32,000 nucleotides of DNA from Cupriavidus necator (lineage in GTDB: Bacteria; Pseudomonadota; Gammaproteobacteria; Burkholderiales; Burkholderiaceae), in NCBI RefSeq assembly GCF_016127575.1, contig NZ_CP066019.1, positions 540,001 through 572,000 on the forward strand. The letters run 5' to 3'. Of the stretch, positions 7,982-18,938 are shown in pieces. Position 1 is the stretch's first letter. Each line of letters begins with the position of its first letter. Position numbers and translations under genes: made by a program. The notes below the pieces were generated by a model that saw only the letters and a list, made by a program, of their open reading frames with translations, ran no database searches and was not told the DNA's origin.

Positions 7982-8092
7982 CCGTCGGCAGGCGCGGTCA
8001 GGGCGACGCCGGCGCGGCGCGCGCCGCAACGATCGCCAGCATCGGGCCGCTCACGCTCAATGGCCAGGGCCGGCTGCGCGGCAACCTGCGCG

Positions 8093-9420
8093 TCAGTCGG
8101 TCCCCGCCGTGGTCGCGTCGCCGCTTGCCATGCGGTGGAAGACAATATCGTCGACCAGCGGTTCCAGCGGTGCCGCAATGCGGTCGATGGTGCCTTCCCG
8201 GTTGTAGAGGAAGGTGAGGGCCAGGTTGTCAGGATGGATTTCGGCGGGTTTTTCGGCGGTGGTGAACACATCGTAATGACGATGGGCGAGCTGGCCGGAC
8301 ATGCCGCGCCAGCGCCAGACTTGTCGACCCGCAGCTGCGCGAGCATTTCCTGGCGCCGGGCGCGCATGCGGCCGAGCCAGTCGATGGGCGCATGGCCGCG
8401 CAACTGGTCCAGGGCCGCATAGGTCAGCAGCGCGGTCACCGCGCTGGGTGCCCGGTTGGTCAGCACCGCAATGCCGATACGCCTGGATGGCATCAGCGTC
8501 ATCAGCGCCGCCCAGCCCAGCCAGCTGCCGCTGTGCGAGACCGTGCGCTCGCCGCGGTATTGCTCGACCGTGAGGCCAAGGCCGTAATGCTGATCGCCGA
8601 CCTCCGGGAACTCCGACATGCCGATATGCACGCCTGGCGTCATCATGTCGCGCACGATCGCCGGCGATAGCAGGGCACGCCCGCCAACCTTGCCTTCATC
8701 CAGCAGGCAGCGCATCCATTTCGCCAGGTCCTCCACCGAGGTGGCGAGGCCACCGGCCGGCTTCACAATGGAGGACCAGTTCGCACGCAAGCACTCGCTT
8801 GCAACCATCGTATGCGGGTGCGCGTGGTCGGGAGCGGCGGCCAGGGCCTCGGCGCAGAAACCGAAGCGTGAGAAACCCAGCGGCCGCAGCAGGCGCTCCT
8901 CGGTGAAGTCCTCCCAGCGCTGGCCGCTGAGGCGCTCGGCCACATGGCCGGCGATCACGTAGCCAAGGTTCTGGTACTGCCAGCGTTCGCGCAGGTCACG
9001 GCTGGGCGCCAGGTGGCGCAGCCGTGCCAGCAGTTCGCCGGTGTCGAGGTCGCCCGGGGTATGGAGCCAGTCGTGGCGCGGCATGCCGCTGTGGTGGCAG
9101 AGCAGGTCGCGCACCGTGATGCGCTCGGTGGTGACGGCATCGTGCAGCCGGAATCCCGGGATCAGGTCGCGTACGGGCGTGGCCCAGTCCAGCCTGCGCT
9201 CGTCCACCAGCAGGCCCAGGCCGGCCGCGGTGAAGGACTTGGTGATCGAGCACAGCATGAACTGCGTGGCCGTTGTCACCGGTGCTGATCCGGCGCTGTC
9301 GCGGACGCCGTAGCCCAGCATCAGGACGGGCTCGCCGTCGCGGATCACGGCCAGCGCAAGCCCGGGGATCTTCCAGTCCGCCATCGACTCTTCGACCAGT
9401 GCATCGAATCCGTTCAGCAT
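8093..9420 (-). pseudogene. Cytoplasmic serine hydrolase of the beta-lactamase/PBP fold (PF00144-like) with a C-terminal DUF3471-like domain, interrupted by a frameshift or small deletion near 8300-8330
   Basis: From ATG at 9420: SxxK (SITK), YxN (YQN) and HSG motifs, with no signal peptide. After ...AQLRVDKSGAG the frame degenerates into P/S/T/R-rich sequence that runs on to 7942, overlapping the dmpG 3' end. A different frame (8302..8093) reads GMSGQLAHRHYDVFTT...LTFLYNREGTIDRIAAPLEPLVDDIVFHR, typical of the C-terminal domain of this family. Confidence 0.6.
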
Positions 9421-13353: not shown

Positions 13354-14346
13354 TCAGTCGACGAGCAGATTTATCTTCGTCGTGAATTTCTGCCAGCGAT
13401 CGATGTCGGCGCTCACCAGCTTCTGGAATTCAGCGGGCGTGCTTGTCGTCGTGGCAAAGCCGAGCTGCGTCAGCGATGCCTTGACCTCGGGCCTGGCGAT
13501 GGCCCTGGCGATTTCCGTGTTGAGCCTTTGCACGATCTCGGGCGGCGTATTTGCGGGGGCGAGGATGCCGAACCACTGGTCGACGTCATAGCCGGCCACG
13601 CCAAGCTCGCTCACGGTGGGTACGTCGGGCAGGAACGGCGAGCGTGCCTTCGACGTGACGGCCAGCGCGCGCAGCTTGTTGCTTTTCAGGTAGGGGATGG
13701 TGTTGGTCAGCGTGTTGACGCTGACATCGGCCTGGTTGCCGAGCACGTCGGCGATGGCGGGGGCGCAACCCTTGTACGGCACGTGCAGCATGTCCATCCT
13801 TGCCGAGACCTTGAGCAGTTCGCCGGCCAGATGCTGCGGGGTGCCGTTGCCGCACGACGCATAGCTGGGGGGTGATGGGCTCTTGCCCGCCGCCAGCAGG
13901 TCGCTGAAGGTGCGGAGTTTCGAGTGCGATGGCACGGCGATCACCGATGGCACCGAAGCGAAGGTGATGACGGCGCTGAAATCGGACTTGGGATTGAACT
14001 GCAGCTTCTTGAAGACGCTCGGGTTGATGGCAAAGCTGCTGTTGACAATGAGCAGCGTATAGCCGTCGGCAGGACTCTTGGCGACGAACTCGGCGCCAAT
14101 ATTGCCGCTGGCGCCGGGCCGGTTGTCGATCACCACCGGCTGCCCCAGCGACTTGCTGATGTCGGCCCCGATCAGGCGCGCGAGAGAATCGGTCCCCCCT
14201 CCGGCCGGGAACGTCACCACCATGCGGATCGGCTTTTGCGGGAAGGTACTGGCGATATTGGCTTCGGCGCGCCCGGGCAGGGTGCCCAGGCTGCCTGCGA
14301 CAAACAGGAGCGATGCCAGACTGCTGACGACGGATAGGGGTCTCAT
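13354..14346 (-). CDS. Bug-family (TctC-like) periplasmic solute-binding protein of a tripartite tricarboxylate transporter
   Basis: Signal peptide, then KPIRMVVTFPAGGGTDSLARL...VIDNRPGASGNIGAEFVAKSPADGYTLL, the Bug/TctC signature. GAGG lies 7 nt upstream of the ATG. The gene starts 43 nt downstream of the fusion gene on the same strand. Confidence 0.9.
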   Translation of the reverse strand: MRPLSVVSSLASLLFVAGSLGTLPGRAEANIASTFPQKPIRMVVTFPAGGGTDSLARLIGADISKSLGQPVVIDNRPGASGNIGAEFVAKSPADGYTLLIVNSSFAINPSVFKKLQFNPKSDFSAVITFASVPSVIAVPSHSKLRTFSDLLAAGKSPSPPSYASCGNGTPQHLAGELLKVSARMDMLHVPYKGCAPAIADVLGNQADVSVNTLTNTIPYLKSNKLRALAVTSKARSPFLPDVPTVSELGVAGYDVDQWFGILAPANTPPEIVQRLNTEIARAIARPEVKASLTQLGFATTTSTPAEFQKLVSADIDRWQKFTTKINLLVD

Positions 14347-14389: not shown

Positions 14390-16195
14390 TCAATCGGGGT
14401 CTATACGCACCGCCTGGCAGCACTCGCCGCCGGCGCGCACCAGTGCTGCAGCCGCCTCTAGCGCTTCAGCGGAGTCCGAGTGGATACGGTAGAGCGGTTG
14501 CCCTGGCGCCACCTTTGCACCGATCGCGCACAGCATGTCGACCCCGGCACCGCCATCGCGCGGCGCGCCGGCGGCGCGCGCCACGCCGGAAATCTGCAGG
14601 CCATCGACGCCCGCCACCCGGCCCCGCGTGGTGGCGGGAACGACCAGCGTATGCGTACCCGGCGCCACTGGATCGCAGCGGACGCCCTGCGCGGCGGCGA
14701 TGCGATCGAACGCGGCCCTGGCCTTGCCTTCATGCAGCAGCGCCGCCGCAATTTGCATGCCGTGTTCGGGGGAGTCCACGCGGGGATCGAATGCGATGAT
14801 TTCGCCGGCAAAGCGCAGGGCCTTGTCGCGCAGGTCGGCGGGCGCATCGGGAGCGTTGTCGAGCACGAGTCGGACGTCGCGCACTTCCAGTGCGGGGCCG
14901 ATGCCGCGGCCGATCGGGCCGCTGCCGTCCGTGACCAGTGCGCGTACGTGCAGGCCCAGTCCCTTGCCGACGTGTTCGAACAGCGCGCCCAGCGCCTCGG
15001 CGTCGGCGCGTGTTGCCAGCTTGGTTTGCGGCCCGTAGGGCAGGTCGACAATGACGTGGGTGGCGCCGGCGGTGTACTTTTTCGACAGGATCGACGCCAC
15101 CGACCAGCGCCGCGAATCGAGCCGCAGCGGTCGCGTGATGGCGTTCATCACATCGTCGACCACGGAATGGTTCAGCCGTCCGTTCCAGGCGATGCAGGCG
15201 CGTGCCTGGGCCACGCATCGGCGCACGTCTTCATGCGCCAGGTCGACCCGTGCGATGGTCTCCATGGCATCGGCGGTGCCGGCGGCAGAGGTGATCGCGC
15301 GTGACGATGTCTTGGGCATCGCCAGCCCGTAGGCCGCGACGATCGGCACCACGATCAGCGTGATGCGGCTGCCGGGAACGCCGCCCATCGAATGCTTGTC
15401 GACGACTACCGGTTCGTCCCAGTCGATGCGGGGTGTGAAGGCGGTACGCGCGCGCGCCAGAGCCACCACTTCCTCGTCCGTGAGCGTGCGGGTTGCGGCA
15501 ACCAGGAACTCGGTCAGCTCGGCCTCGGTGTAGCGCCCGGCGATGGCGTCCTGCAGCACGGCAACGTAGGCCGCTTCGTCGAGCGGCTCGCCGCGCAGCT
15601 TGGCCATAAGGTTGGTGCGGCTGGCCGGCCGTTCGGCGGCGGATGTCCTGGTGCCGGTGCGCAAGGCTTCGACAAAGCGTGCCGTGCCTGCTTCCAGCGT
15701 GCTGTGGTTCGACACCGTGATACACGGGACGTGTGGCGGCACCGGAGCTCCCGCGCGTGCCACGCGGCTGGCAACCTGGTCGCCCGATTCCCGCCCGCGT
15801 GCGGCAATGCGCCGGGCAAGCACGTCATGCGGTGCCGTTACCAGGACCACCACGAAACGGGGCAAGCGCGCCGCGAGTTCCGCGATGACGCCGCGCGAGC
15901 CATTGGCCACGACGTTGCGGCCGCGTTCGAGCTCGCACATCAGGGACTTGGGCAATCCGTAGCGCAGGTCGTGCGCGTCCCAGGTCACCAGGAACTCTCC
16001 GCTTCGCTGGCGCCGCGCGAACTCGGCCTCCGTGACACCTTCGTGCTCTTCGCCAGCAGACCCGTCGGGACGCGTGATGACGCGCCGCGCAAAAACGTAG
16101 TCGCCGTCGAGCGCGGCACGTGCACCGTCGATCAGGGAGTCCTTGCCAGCGCCACTGGGCCCCACAACAAAGAAGAATGTGCCGGTCGCCTTCAT
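14390..16195 (-). CDS. Bifunctional fusion: N-terminal ribose-1,5-bisphosphate phosphokinase (PhnN-like, ~aa 1-185) plus C-terminal family-2 thymidine phosphorylase / AMP phosphorylase-like domain (~aa 195-601)
   Basis: The N-terminus has the [11 protein letters not shown]-loop, RRVITRP..AG.EH and NGSR, as in E. coli PhnN. The C-terminus has [13 protein letters not shown] and [19 protein letters not shown], which match the AMP-phosphorylase-like family rather than DeoA (DKHSTGGVGD / GHTGGTLD). It is a single uninterrupted ORF. Confidence 0.85.
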
Positions 16196-16200
16196 GAGTA

Positions 16201-16279
16201 TTACCTTAGATGTCGAAGTTATGTGGCTATGCTAGCACCGGCCAGGGGGGTGTCAAGATAAGTTCGATGTCTAAGGTAA
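16201..16279 (-). promoter_or_regulatory. Promoter/operator module of the phnN-fusion gene: sigma70-like -35 TTGACA and -10 TAGCAT (minus strand) bracketed by inverted operator arms TTACCTTAGAtgTCGAA / TTCGAtgTCTAAGGTAA
   Basis: Plus-strand TGTCAA at 16252-16257 and ATGCTA at 16229-16234, with a 17-nt spacer. Arms at 16201-16217 and 16263-16279 match 15 of 17. The same architecture recurs at 18066-18141. Confidence 0.65.
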
Positions 16280-16549
16280 TGCAAACAACGGGCCAGCGCC
16301 CGCAAATCCAGTGTGTACGCGGGATTCGCGGACTTGTAGGGGAAAACACGGGGATACGGGTGCGCAGTGACGGTGCCTCATGCATGGGTTGCGGGCATCG
16401 TGCACTGATGGAGTGAACGCTACATGGAGAGGCATGGCCGATGAAGCGGTGATGTCGGCGTGCGAGCGCCGGAGGCGCTATCATGTGCGCTGTCGCTGGC
16501 ACCGGGCCGTCCGCTGCCGCATGCATACGCTCTACTTTCCCTCACGACT

Positions 16550-17095
16550 ATGGCCACAAAGAAACCGGATGCTCCGGTCCCGATCACGCCTGCGGATGAA
16601 GCCGATGAAGAACGGCTTGCCCACCTGGTGAAGGATGCCGCCCGGGCCTACATCCGGGCGCTGCAGCTGCGGCTGGCGGAACATTCGGTTTCGTATGGCC
16701 ACTGGACCATCCTGCGTATCCTGTGGCGCCATGACGGCGTGTCGCAGCGAGAGCTGAGCGAACGCGCCGGGGTGACCGAGCCGACGACGTTTGCGGCAGT
16801 CAAGGCGCTGGAGGCGCTGGGCTACGTGGAACGCACGCATCTTCCTGGCAACAGGAAGAAGGTGCATGTGTTCCTGAGCAAGACCGGACGCGGGCTGCGC
16901 CGCAAGCTTGAACCGCTGGCGACCGAGGTGAATGAACTCAGCGTGGCAGGGCTGAGCGAAGAAGACGTGCTGACCACGCGCCGCGTGCTGATCACGATTG
17001 CGAAGCGGCTGGTCGCCGACGAAGCCGCGTCGGCGGAACATGGCCGGCGGGTCCCGTCCACCCAGGAGGTAGGGCGCCTGCTCTCGGACCTGTAG
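16550..17095 (+). CDS. MarR-family transcriptional regulator
   Basis: Winged-helix core HWTILRILWRHDGVSQRELSERAGVTEPTTFAAVKALEALGYVERTHLPGNRKKVHVFLSKTGR. Start chosen at MATKK (16550). The RBS is weak and 16460 is an alternative start. Confidence 0.85.
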   Translation: MATKKPDAPVPITPADEADEERLAHLVKDAARAYIRALQLRLAEHSVSYGHWTILRILWRHDGVSQRELSERAGVTEPTTFAAVKALEALGYVERTHLPGNRKKVHVFLSKTGRGLRRKLEPLATEVNELSVAGLSEEDVLTTRRVLITIAKRLVADEAASAEHGRRVPSTQEVGRLLSDL

Positions 17096-17195
17096 ACGAC
17101 CCGCAACGGAAAAGACCCTCGCCGGGCGAGACGGCAAGGGTGAATGCCTTGGGTAGAAGGCGTGAATCGGTCAGGGGGCCTGAGCCCCGCGGGTG

Positions 17196-18029
17196 TCAGG
17201 CTTCGTCGAGCCCGATGTCCACGGCAGGGGCCGACTGGGTGATCTTGCTCGTGGAGATGTAGTCCACGCCCGTTTCCGCCACGGCCCGGATCGTTTCCAG
17301 GCGGATGCCGCCTGACGCCTCGACTTTGGTCCGGCCATTGACGATCTGCACGGCTTCCTTCATGTCGGGCACCGACATGTTGTCCAGCATGATCACGTCG
17401 ACACCGGTTGCCAGTGCTTCGTGCACCTGTTCCAGCCGGTCGCATTCCACTTCCAGCTTGGTCAGCACGGGCAGCTTGCGGCGCACGCGTGCCACGGCGG
17501 CAGCGATGCTGCCGCACACGGCGATGTGGTTGTCCTTGATCATCACGCCGTTGTCCAGGCTCAGCCGGTGGTTCAGGCCGCCGCCGCAGGTCACCGCATG
17601 CTTTTCCAGCGCGCGCAGGCCCGGCGTGGTCTTGCGGCTGTCGATCAGGCGCGCCTTGGTATGGGCAATGGCCTGGGCATAGGTTGCCGTATGGTTGGCG
17701 ATGCCGCACAGACGCTGCATGATGTTCAGCGCGGTGCGCTCGGCCGTCAGGACGCTGCGTGCATTGCCGCTCACGTTAAGCAGCACCGCGCCTTTTTCAA
17801 CCTTGTCGCCGTCGGCGACGCGCACATCGACCGACAGCGTCGGATCGTAGCGCGCGAAGATGCGTGCCGCCACGTCGATGCCGGCGATAAGCATCGGCTC
17901 GCGGGCGTTCATGCAGAAGGTGCCGGTCTCTCCCGGTTCAATCATGGTCTGGACGGTCAAGTCGCAGATGCCGATGTCTTCGGTCAGCCAGAGGTCGATC
18001 AGCTTGTCGGTGGCGAAAATGTCGTACAT
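17196..18029 (-). CDS. Nicotinate-nucleotide pyrophosphorylase (carboxylating) / quinolinate phosphoribosyltransferase family protein (NadC paralog; ModD-like not excluded)
   Basis: LTEDIG.CDLT, TAERTALNIMQRLCGIA, SRKTTPGLRALEKHAVTCGGGLNHRLSLDNGVMIKDNH, EVEC, IMLDNM and EASGGI are type II PRTase motifs. CAGGAG lies 7 nt upstream of the ATG. Confidence 0.85.
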   Translation of the reverse strand: MYDIFATDKLIDLWLTEDIGICDLTVQTMIEPGETGTFCMNAREPMLIAGIDVAARIFARYDPTLSVDVRVADGDKVEKGAVLLNVSGNARSVLTAERTALNIMQRLCGIANHTATYAQAIAHTKARLIDSRKTTPGLRALEKHAVTCGGGLNHRLSLDNGVMIKDNHIAVCGSIAAAVARVRRKLPVLTKLEVECDRLEQVHEALATGVDVIMLDNMSVPDMKEAVQIVNGRTKVEASGGIRLETIRAVAETGVDYISTSKITQSAPAVDIGLDEA

Positions 18030-18065
18030 GAAGGGCTCCTGAACGGTGGTTGCGGTACCTCATAA

Positions 18066-18141
18066 ATCTTAGAGATCGAAGTACATGGCGCAATACTAGC
18101 CCTTTCAGGCGCCATGTCAAGTAATATTCGAGATCTAAGAT
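18066..18141 (-). promoter_or_regulatory. Second copy of the promoter/operator module, upstream of the nadC paralog: -35 TTGACA, -10 TAGTAT, flanking arms ATCTTAGAgaTCGAA / TTCGAgaTCTAAGAT
   Basis: Plus-strand TGTCAA at 18115-18120 and ATACTA at 18093-18098, with a 16-nt spacer. Arms at 18066-18080 and 18127-18141. It aligns base-for-base with 16205-16275 over about 72 nt. Confidence 0.65.
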
Positions 18142-18152
18142 AAAGCGCAAAC

Positions 18153-18938
18153 CTACCGCGCAAACTGCCCCAGCACCGTCCCGACCGCCTCCAGCCCCGC
18201 CCCGATCATATGCTGCATGTAGGTGCCCATCTGCGGCATTACCAGCATCAGCACCAGCAGGCCGCCGGACAGCGTGACCGGGAAGCCGACCGCAAAGATC
18301 GACAGTTGCGGCGAGGCGCGGTTGAGGATGCCCATCGCCAGGTTCAGCGTCAGCAGCGCCGCGATCATCGGCAGCGCCAGCAGCAGCCCGGACGAGAACA
18401 CCATGCCGCCGGCGCGGGCCACGGCCATGGCGCCGCCGGCGGACAGCGGCGTGCCGCCGATGGGCAGGCCGCTGAAGCTGTCGACCAGCGCGCCCAGCAT
18501 CAGCAGGTGGCCGTCCAGCGCCAGGAACAGCAGCATCGCGATCAGGTTCAGGAAGCGCGACAGCACCATGGTCTGGCCGCCGGCGGCGCGGTCGAAGAAC
18601 GAGGCAAAGGACAGGCCCATCTGCAGGCCGATGATTTCGCCGGCCTGCTGCACGGTGGCAAAGACCAGCCGCATGGCAAAGCCCGTGGCCAGGCCGATGC
18701 CGACTTCGTTGAGGATGATCATCAGCCCGCCGAAGGAGTACACCGGCACCACCGGCAGCTGCGCGATGGTGGGCGACACCACCACCGCGACCATCGCGGA
18801 CAGCGCGATCTTGGCGCGGCGCGGGATGGTGGACTCACCGAACAGCGGCGCGGTGCCGATCAGGGCCAGGATGCGGAAGAAAGGCCACAGGAACGCCGCG
18901 AGCCAGCTGTAGAGCTGGGCTGAGGTGAATTCGACCAC
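18153..18938 (-). CDS. fliR: Flagellar type III export gate protein FliR
   Basis: Polytopic membrane protein with an N-terminus (LAAFLWPFFRILALIGTAPLFG) typical of FliR. Last gene of the fliLMNOPQR order. Confidence 0.92.
   Translation of the reverse strand: MVEFTSAQLYSWLAAFLWPFFRILALIGTAPLFGESTIPRRAKIALSAMVAVVVSPTIAQLPVVPVYSFGGLMIILNEVGIGLATGFAMRLVFATVQQAGEIIGLQMGLSFASFFDRAAGGQTMVLSRFLNLIAMLLFLALDGHLLMLGALVDSFSGLPIGGTPLSAGGAMAVARAGGMVFSSGLLLALPMIAALLTLNLAMGILNRASPQLSIFAVGFPVTLSGGLLVLMLVMPQMGTYMQHMIGAGLEAVGTVLGQFAR

Follow-up and report, generated by a model that had tools for sequence, protein, structure and literature searches.

The question addressed here is raised by a 32,000-nt stretch of DNA from Cupriavidus necator (C2:540001–572000, referred to below as the window; the genome has three replicons, 7.4 Mb and 66% G+C): which protein acts on a minus-strand promoter that lies between two inverted, palindromic arms (16200–16280), and why is the whole arrangement repeated 1.8 kb away? 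The first block precedes a gene (14390–16195, minus strand, 601 aa; identified with Pfam and NCBIfam) whose product joins a PhnN-type ribose-1,5-bisphosphokinase (TIGR02322 PhnN, 1.3e-51) to an AMP/thymidine-phosphorylase-like domain (PRK04350, 7e-201), and which we call the fusion gene. The second block precedes nadC2 (17196–18029, minus strand), which encodes a paralogue of quinolinate phosphoribosyltransferase (QAPRTase; Pfam, NCBIfam TIGR00078, 1.3e-94) and shares 38% identity with the housekeeping nadC of contig C1 (tblastn against the genome). Between these two minus-strand genes, on the plus strand, lies marR (16550–17095), whose product is a candidate repressor of both promoters. We suggest, with a probability of about 0.7, that dimers of this MarR protein bind the paired arms as operators and repress both promoters sterically, and that an effector relieves the repression.

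Paired putative operators and the promoters between them

Read on the minus strand, the DNA before the fusion gene runs TTGCAT TAC CTTAGAcaTCGAAC ttatc TTGACA-N16-TGcTAGCAT agccacataa CTTCGAcaTCTAAG gtaatactc ATG. Its distal operator, CTTAGACATCGAAC (16262–16275, minus strand), which is predicted to span −53 to −40, lies 5 bp upstream of the −35 hexamer TTGACA (16251–16256); the extended −10 element TGcTAGCAT (16229–16237) consists of a hexamer at 16229–16234 and a TG at 16236–16237 (−15/−14); and the proximal operator, CTTCGACATCTAAG on the minus strand (16205–16218), would cover +5 to +18 if transcription starts, as promoter geometry predicts, at the A 7 nt after the −10 element (16222). An inverted-repeat search recovered the arms that an initial annotation of this DNA had picked out, as two 23-nt segments (16200–16222 and 16258–16280) that are 87% complementary and 35 nt apart, and each arm is, as had been proposed, a dyad in its own right: CTTAGA-NN-TCGAAG is symmetric at 5/6 positions and has the geometry TTAG-N4-C(T/G)AA, as in the crystallized site of MepR. 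A promoter scan upheld the TTGACA/TAGCAT promoter on the minus strand and corrected its spacer from 17 to 16 nt. Across 16000–18400 the scan found exactly two sigma70-like sites, both on the minus strand, both with 10/12 consensus positions and a 16-nt spacer, and each of them inside an arm pair.

At nadC2 the corresponding minus-strand elements are a proximal operator, CTTCGATCTCTAAG (18068–18081, predicted +6 to +19), the conserved core promoter TTGACA-N16-TAGTAT (18093–18120), a predicted transcription start at the A 7 nt after the −10 element (18086) and a distal operator, CTTAGATCTCGAAT (18126–18139, predicted −53 to −40), the last of which lies about 14 nt past the stop codon and small terminator-like hairpin of a fliR-like gene. 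Alignment of the fusion-gene block with 18030–18165 bore out the match to 18068–18139 that had first drawn attention to this second promoter, with the arms, −35 and −10 in register and one 1-nt indel within the block. From centre to centre, the arms of the fusion promoter are separated by 57 bp and those of nadC2 by 58 bp, in line with the original estimate. The operators conform to (T/A)AnCTTAGA-NN-TCGAA(G/C/T)TT, each with its TTAGA half facing outward and its TTCGA half facing the promoter, and the central dinucleotide is identical on the same strand in paired arms (CA/CA and TC/TC), so that the arms are imperfect inverted copies at their centres. The outer half of the proximal operator also supplies the AAGG Shine–Dalgarno sequence of the fusion gene (16204–16207); the overlap of operator and Shine–Dalgarno sequence proposed initially holds for this gene and not for nadC2, whose leader has its own GGAG 57 nt further down, clear of the proximal operator.

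Allowing ≤2 mismatches, the 14-mer CTTAGANNTCGAAG has 7 matches in the window, against a mean of 0.56 in shuffled sequences (0/100 shuffles reached 7), and 6 of the 7 are the four arms (16205, 16262, 18068 and 18126). In the whole 7.4-Mb genome the form TTAGA-NN-TCGAA is confined to the four arms, which also remain the only sites when ≤1 mismatch is allowed and the TTAGA half is retained; the remaining 21 genomic matches to TT[AC]GA-NN-TC[GT]AA have, without exception, the all-C form TTCGA..TCGAA. TTAG-N4-CGAA occurs 7 times and TTCG-N4-CTAA 9 times, the copies outside the arms being unpaired and unlike the arms beyond the core, and TTAG-N4-CTAA has 3 copies. The genome scan thus returned the two-promoter regulon that had been postulated, which, so far as can be judged from sequence, would comprise the promoters of the fusion gene and nadC2. 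Through the former it probably extends to a gene for a Bug/TctC-family periplasmic binding protein (13354–14346, minus strand; Pfam TctC, 5.6e-69): this gene starts 43 nt past the end of the fusion gene, a position kept in the Cupriavidus loci L001–L012, and because only 43 nt separate them the two are probably co-transcribed.

With the fusion protein as query, 80 loci were recovered: 12 from Cupriavidus, to which the relatives of the window belong, and 68 from outside the genus. Both blocks and marR (64–97% identity) are present at 12/12 of the Cupriavidus loci, where the fusion protein is 73–96% identical, and both blocks are likewise present at 15 further Cupriavidus loci centred on marR. 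Over 28 Cupriavidus genomes, 56/56 blocks are intact, and the operator reading thus withstands a test posed in the initial annotation, where loss of the arms from orthologous loci had been named as grounds for abandoning it. The arms stand 57 or 58 bp apart (55 and 59 bp in the most distant species), all 94 distinct arms agree, but for one base, at the ten half-site positions, the TTAGA-outward/TTCGA-inward asymmetry is kept in every arm, and CTTGACA and the extended −10 GTGCTAGCAT are invariant in the Cupriavidus alignment. What varies is the −35/−10 spacer, the DNA that separates the −10 from the proximal arm, and the two bases at the centre of every arm. The strict pattern used for the conservation count dropped no block, and a mismatch-tolerant scan gave the same constancy. 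Also conserved is TACGCCATGTAC, between the nadC2 −10 and proximal arm, and more strongly so than the matching stretch of the fusion promoter. A nested palindrome at the nadC2 promoter, ACATGGCGC/GCGCCATGT (18083–18117), was considered as a separate operator and is probably not one, its left half not being conserved in other species.

The pattern of variation within the arms bears on whether the block acts as DNA or as RNA. Were it transcribed whole from an upstream start, it could act as an RNA hairpin (a terminator, a processing site or a translational trap), and the 90-nt minus-strand RNA does fold at −23.7 kcal/mol (z = −4.07 against shuffles), with the proximal arm covering the Shine–Dalgarno sequence of the fusion gene. 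A stable fold of the whole block is, however, trivial because the arms are inverted, and the central dinucleotides could pair between arms in only 3/23 distinct fusion-gene blocks and 3/24 distinct nadC2 blocks; since these dinucleotides do not covary while the half-sites stay fixed, selection for RNA pairing is not apparent. In addition, the ‘loop’ of such a hairpin would hold a fully conserved −35 and extended −10, the region 15900–18500 has no Rfam match at E ≤ 1, and related single sites occur in other genera without a partner arm. To judge from these alignments the arms are a protein footprint, and we regard an RNA hairpin as very improbable. Two copies of about 80 bp, 1.8 kb apart and ending in inverted repeats, might also recall a miniature inverted-repeat transposable element (MITE) or a repetitive extragenic palindromic (REP)-like element without regulatory meaning. 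We find this scarcely credible, since there are only two copies in 7.4 Mb, both in the same orientation and immediately ahead of genes that elsewhere make up a single operon, since only functional elements are conserved, between the copies as well as between species, and since neither target-site duplications nor extra copies were seen in the 28 genomes.

A MarR protein of the phthalate-cluster clade

The start codon of marR is most likely that at 16550, which would give a protein of 181 aa. It belongs to the MarR family according to Pfam (PF01047, 5.5e-14; PF12802, 3.6e-11) and to its best PDB matches, which are MarR-family proteins, and its translation and homologues place it in the OphR/PhtR (phthalate-cluster) clade. 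In a sample of the genus, 15/15 genomes with a marR orthologue (at least 86% identity) have the fusion gene, and 23/23 genomes without one lack it (20 without such a MarR and 3 with only a paralogue of 52–56% identity). Outside the genus, the motif TT[AC]GA-NN-TC[GT]AA was found at 0/68 of the fusion loci, one of which (L071) has a MarR homologue.

Members of the clade, marked by the signature DRLAHLVKDATRA...FGHWTFLRILW..DGLTQRELS..AGVMEPTT, occur in other Burkholderiales and in Rhizobiales, and homologues at 32–64% identity, encoded in phthalate-dioxygenase (oph/pht) clusters, adjoin TT(A/C)G-N4-C(T/G)AA palindromes, a type of site that these genomes hardly contain elsewhere. In particular, the Cupriavidus protein is 48–64% identical to MarRs that flank genes for a phthalate dioxygenase, for its reductase and a permease–reductase–oxygenase operon. 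The palindrome TTAGATCTCTAA (GGTTAGATCTCTAATA) lies between marR and a transporter gene (L083), CTTAGTACCCTAAG (ACTTAGTACCCTAAGC) before a phthalate dioxygenase-type gene (L092; PDB 7fjl/7v25, E 1.7e-201), TACTTAGGAGACTAAGTA in the 17 bp that separate a divergent Rieske oxygenase gene from a dehydrogenase–marR–decarboxylase-like operon (L091), and TACTTAGCTAACTAAGTA beside a phthalate dioxygenase reductase gene (L126/L127; PDB 2PIA, E 4e-105); L095 has a pair of sites at a distance of 75 bp. In another Burkholderiaceae genus, nine loci carry TTATTCGATATCTAACTATAAT or TACTTCGATCTCTAAC, with TTCGA(TA/TC)TCTAA, which is the hybrid form that the Cupriavidus arms themselves have. At L134, an oph-type cluster in which marR is divergent from genes for a major facilitator superfamily (MFS) permease, a reductase and a Rieske/LigXa_C oxygenase, the permease gene is preceded at 12 nt by TTCGATATCTAA and the reductase gene at 26 nt by TTAGATATCTAA.

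The pattern TTAG-N4-CTAA does not capture the Paraburkholderia-like loci, which have a TTCGA half, and a broader pattern was used for them. With it, TT(A/C)G-N4-C(T/G)AA is present in 17 of the 31 clade loci (±1.5 kb each), in 10 of them as the strict form TT[AC]GA-NN-TC[GT]AA, with a second site in the larger locus L134; the strict form has 10 occurrences in the 101 kb of clade loci and none in 886 kb of control loci. A further case is provided by a genome of another Burkholderiaceae genus (G691), which has an operon of nadC2 (75% identity) and the fusion gene (61%) and, on another contig, a marR that is 64% identical; here two TTAGATATC sites, in direct orientation and 39 bp apart, stand around TTGCCA-N17-TAGACT (L136:6230–6300, G691:C57). 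A long leader or a small upstream open reading frame is implied by the position of the two sites, some 430 nt upstream of nadC2.

Taking together the phyletic pattern, the sites of the clade, their rarity in the background and the G691 case, we consider the local MarR by far the best candidate for the protein that binds the arms, so that a link first drawn from adjacency now has comparative support in co-occurrence and in the association of clade and motif. Homologues of phthalate dioxygenase, dihydrodiol dehydrogenase and the decarboxylase were not found in the genome by tblastn, and nadC2 was not found near the oph-cluster marR genes in the eight genomes looked at. Given its clade kinship and site type, and the absence of phthalate catabolic genes, the Cupriavidus MarR is on present evidence a relative of the OphR/PhtR clade with a different regulon, namely nadC2 and the fusion gene.

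The arms might alternatively be operators of a regulator encoded elsewhere, with the local MarR binding another site, such as a second palindrome upstream of marR, the 18-bp ATGGAGTGAACGCTACAT (16408–16425). At every orthologous Cupriavidus locus this palindrome is conserved, in the most distant species in a nearly perfect form, and it has one perfect twin in the genome, ATGTAGTG-NN-CACTACAT (C1:502102–502119; L131:3103–3120), the copy upstream of marR having 2 mismatches. The twin is flanked by nicB-like and MFS transporter genes, in a cluster for nicotinate degradation that consists of nicF/X/D/E/C/A/B-like genes and a TetR-type regulator gene, with related half-sites in the nicE–nicC gap. 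A regulator encoded elsewhere would account for the lack of a CTTAGA-type site at the putative marR promoter, for the second conserved palindrome with its twin in the nic cluster, and for the G691 and Bradyrhizobium nadC2 operons, which carry related sites without an adjoining regulator gene. We nevertheless think it rather unlikely, considering that marR and its target are gained and lost together in the genus sample, that this MarR clade is the only regulator gene common to all TT(A/C)G-N4-C(T/G)AA loci, that the 16408 palindrome is by sequence an element of the nic cluster, and that this cluster encodes a TetR-type regulator of its own.

We suggest that 16408–16425 is probably the operator of another regulator, that of the nic cluster, acting on marR. 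Consequently marR may be under nicotinate-linked control, which would fit the NAD (nicotinamide adenine dinucleotide)-related role of the regulon proposed for the local MarR. The palindrome is upstream of the conserved GCGCTATCATGTGCGC, within which TATCAT (16479–16484, plus strand) is a candidate −10 element for marR; in another genus the GGCTATCATGT block recurs some 60 nt ahead of marR homologues. Just past the distal arm, the stretch 16281–16330 (ATGCAA...GGGCCAGCGCCCGCAAATCCAGTGTGTACGCGGGATT) is strongly conserved, has within it a small terminator-like hairpin of the minus strand (16288–16303), and may insulate the fusion promoter from antisense read-through.

Proposed repression by occlusion and its relation to known systems

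In the mechanism that we propose, one dimer of the locally encoded MarR would occupy each operator. The distal dimer, at about −46, would abut the −35 hexamer and the contact zone of the RNA polymerase alpha subunit, and the proximal dimer, at about +12, would sit on the initially transcribed DNA and, at the fusion gene, also over the ribosome-binding site; between them the two dimers would cover the RNA polymerase footprint at both its upstream and its downstream edge and thereby exclude the enzyme sterically, until an effector frees the repressor from the operators. Occlusion and looping had initially been offered as alternatives. We favour occlusion, given that the sites appear to lie on opposite faces and match both edges of the polymerase footprint, and we consider looping unlikely because a separation of 57–58 bp (5.4–5.5 helical turns) would set the dimers on opposite faces of the helix.

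Several points weigh against repression by the local MarR in this manner. The distal operator ends 5 bp short of the −35 hexamer, and its share in occlusion is assumed from the 20–25 bp footprints typical of MarR proteins. The putative marR promoter has no CTTAGA-type site in its vicinity, so that MarR would not autoregulate through the arms, which is unusual in the family, and the different conserved palindrome at 16408–16425 could in principle be MarR's own site. Simple binding by a symmetric dimer does not explain the strict A/C asymmetry of every arm, which possibly reflects tuned affinity or a directional contact. Lastly, the genome is without a phthalate pathway, so the effector may differ from that of the relatives in oph clusters.

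The same 5-bp gap could be taken to mean that MarR acts as a dual switch, activating or fine-tuning from the distal (−46) site and repressing only from the proximal one. Some MarR/SlyA-family proteins do activate from upstream sites, and the alphaproteobacterial nadC2 operons have a single site just past the −10. With a perfect −35 and a good −10 (one with the extended TG), however, neither Cupriavidus promoter should need an activator, a centre at −46.5 misfits the usual activator positions, and the sites mirror each other about the promoter, which suggests equal roles. We hold a dual switch to be quite improbable, and infer a repressing rather than an activating role for MarR at both operators.

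In kind, steric repression by MarR from these operators would be of the standard MarR repressor–operator type. MepR, a MarR protein of Staphylococcus aureus, was crystallized on TATTTAGTTAGATATCTAACTAAATA; its signature, GTTAG-N4-CTAAC with the core TTAGATATCTAA, is read by the residues with which the recognition helix begins, Thr-Gly-Pro-Thr, and it represses either from one site over the −10 and the transcription start or from two sites over the −35, −10 and start (PMC3936728). The Cupriavidus operator is similarly an inverted repeat of (G)TTAG with a 4-bp linker, the MepR core is the very site found in the oph-type cluster at L134, and three features of MepR, namely one dimer per site, sites over promoter elements and ligand-relieved repression, are those proposed here. 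Unlike the two sites at mepA, which abut, the Cupriavidus sites are separated by 57–58 bp, with the core promoter left free in between; furthermore, the inner half-site is TTCGA and not TTAG(A), and the regulated genes are metabolic, whereas MepR controls an efflux pump. MepR is absent from the 60 best PDB matches of the Cupriavidus MarR, so that the likeness is one of operator geometry and not of close kinship. The clade residues Thr-Glu/Met-Pro-Thr-Thr would correspond to the start of the MepR recognition helix, their position being assumed without an alignment, and we offer this as a lead. A literature search with five site 12-mers gave the MepR paper as the only relevant match, and one with the site sequence CTTAGATGTC gave irrelevant matches only.

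Escherichia coli MarR binds two palindromes at marO (sites I and II), one dimer to each, one of the sites reaching the ribosome-binding site, and represses sterically in a manner relieved by aromatic acids. The Cupriavidus promoter regions likewise have two separate palindromes, one at promoter elements and one that, at the fusion gene, reaches a ribosome-binding site. Whereas marO controls the regulator's own operon, Cupriavidus marR seems to be on a separate promoter without such a site; the site sequences are unrelated, and the Cupriavidus sites flank the −35 and −10, while those of marO lie between them.

Phthalate clusters contain, in addition to the MarR regulator gene phtR, a second QAPRTase gene (phtD/ophE) that boosts growth on phthalate (PMC6051330, with reference to Chang & Zylstra 1999, J Bacteriol 181:3069). 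The system described here resembles PhtR/OphR in MarR kinship (48–64%), in the site type TT(A/C)G-N4-C(T/G)AA and in having a second nadC copy tied to such a MarR, and differs from it in that the genome lacks a phthalate pathway and the regulon would consist of nadC2, the PhnN::phosphorylase fusion and the Bug protein. No published operator for PhtR/OphR was found in the literature searched, which gave gene-cluster descriptions, and we infer the assignment of the motif to the PhtR/OphR clade from the present comparison. The QAPRTase gene of phthalate degraders is reportedly induced specifically by phthalate, and the enzyme is said to be inhibited competitively by it. An aromatic or pyridine ortho-dicarboxylate, for example phthalate or quinolinate, is by analogy a plausible effector of the Cupriavidus MarR, because its clade sits in phthalate 4,5-dioxygenase clusters and because quinolinate, the substrate of NadC, is the pyridine analogue of phthalate.

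MarR-type control of nadC2 and the fusion gene also recurs in another form. BpsR is a 6-hydroxynicotinate-responsive repressor of Bordetella (PMC6837509). In the alphaproteobacterial nadC2–fusion operon, TTGACA-N17-(−10) is followed directly by the 12-bp palindrome TTnGTATACAAA, and in Bosea a gene for a BpsR/NicR-like MarR (PDB 6pcp/6pco, E ~3e-27) is convergent after the fusion gene and has TTCGTATACGAA 13 nt before its own start. The Bosea loci (L029:5074, 8080–8538; L051–L066) contain three TTnGTATACnAA palindromes, one about 300 bp upstream, one just past the nadC2 −10 and one 13 nt before the marR start. The arrangement in Bosea looks like an autoregulated MarR regulon parallel to that of Cupriavidus: both would control nadC2 and the fusion gene through a palindrome just past the −10, but Bosea uses another MarR clade (22% identity to the Cupriavidus protein), another half-site and one promoter site, not two.

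Probable origin of the two cassettes and possible role of the module

The reason why the arrangement is present twice may be found in the gene order of other genera. At nearly all of the 68 non-Cupriavidus loci (L013–L080, for example L029:5152–8034), which include Pseudomonas, Bosea, Bradyrhizobium and Pseudolabrys and span the Alpha-, Beta- and Gammaproteobacteria, nadC2 ends about 10–20 nt before the fusion gene on the same strand; outside Cupriavidus the two genes are by all appearances one operon. Among the loci compared, only those of Cupriavidus have marR between nadC2 and the fusion gene, in opposite orientation, and one promoter–operator cassette per gene. We suggest that two cassettes exist because insertion of marR interrupted an operon that is unbroken (nadC2 and then the fusion gene) in other Proteobacteria. 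Aligned with each other, the two cassettes match solely in functional elements; one may therefore be a copy of the other, or identical constraints may have shaped both.

With regard to neighbouring genes, the nadC2–fusion pair of Pseudomonas comes after ATP-binding cassette (ABC)-transporter permease genes, and in Bradyrhizobium an isochorismatase (nicotinamidase-like) gene is found 3′ of the pair. Two Cupriavidus species (L010:3431–3868 and L011:2795–3205) have a gene for a BpsR-like MarR upstream of the nadC2 cassette, in place of fliR; the protein is 35% identical to that of Bosea, so that these loci each contain two different MarR genes. In seven Cupriavidus genomes (G797, G799, G801, G805, G823, G824 and G827) a match of 68–71% begins only at about residue 172–187 of the fusion protein and corresponds to its phosphorylase-like part, inside open frames of 705–902 aa, which may be a different fusion or an unfused paralogue. 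Overall, nadC2 and the PhnN::phosphorylase-like fusion look like a conserved, apparently uncharacterized module of NAD and phosphoribosyl pyrophosphate (PRPP) metabolism.

A wider reading of the locus can be put forward only tentatively, with the odds against it. MarR would here be an ortho-dicarboxylate sensor that has been uncoupled from phthalate catabolism, its cassette would have been duplicated when marR was inserted, and a single signal would govern an NAD/PRPP module that is cross-wired to the nicotinate regulon by way of the nic-type palindrome ahead of marR. If this were true, one signal would turn on an extra QAPRTase, PRPP regeneration from nucleotides and a Bug-type dicarboxylate-binding protein, a module that could serve the salvage of external quinolinate or bypass the inhibition of NadC by antimetabolites.

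The operator consensus of phthalate-cluster MarR proteins, the nadC2/PRPP regulon and the duplicated cassette appear to be undescribed in the literature searched. They would provide a concrete regulon and an operator consensus, TT(A/C)GA-NN-TC(T/G)AA, for the MarR clade of phthalate-degradation clusters, which may be of use in phthalate or quinolinate biosensors and in the annotation of phthalate clusters. They would also tie a regulator of the aromatic-dicarboxylate type to the widespread, uncharacterized pair of nadC2 and the PhnN::AMP-phosphorylase-like fusion, and so hint at the role of this pair and its inducers. With respect to regulatory evolution, an operon split by the insertion of its regulator gene would have kept its co-regulation by means of two promoter–operator cassettes.

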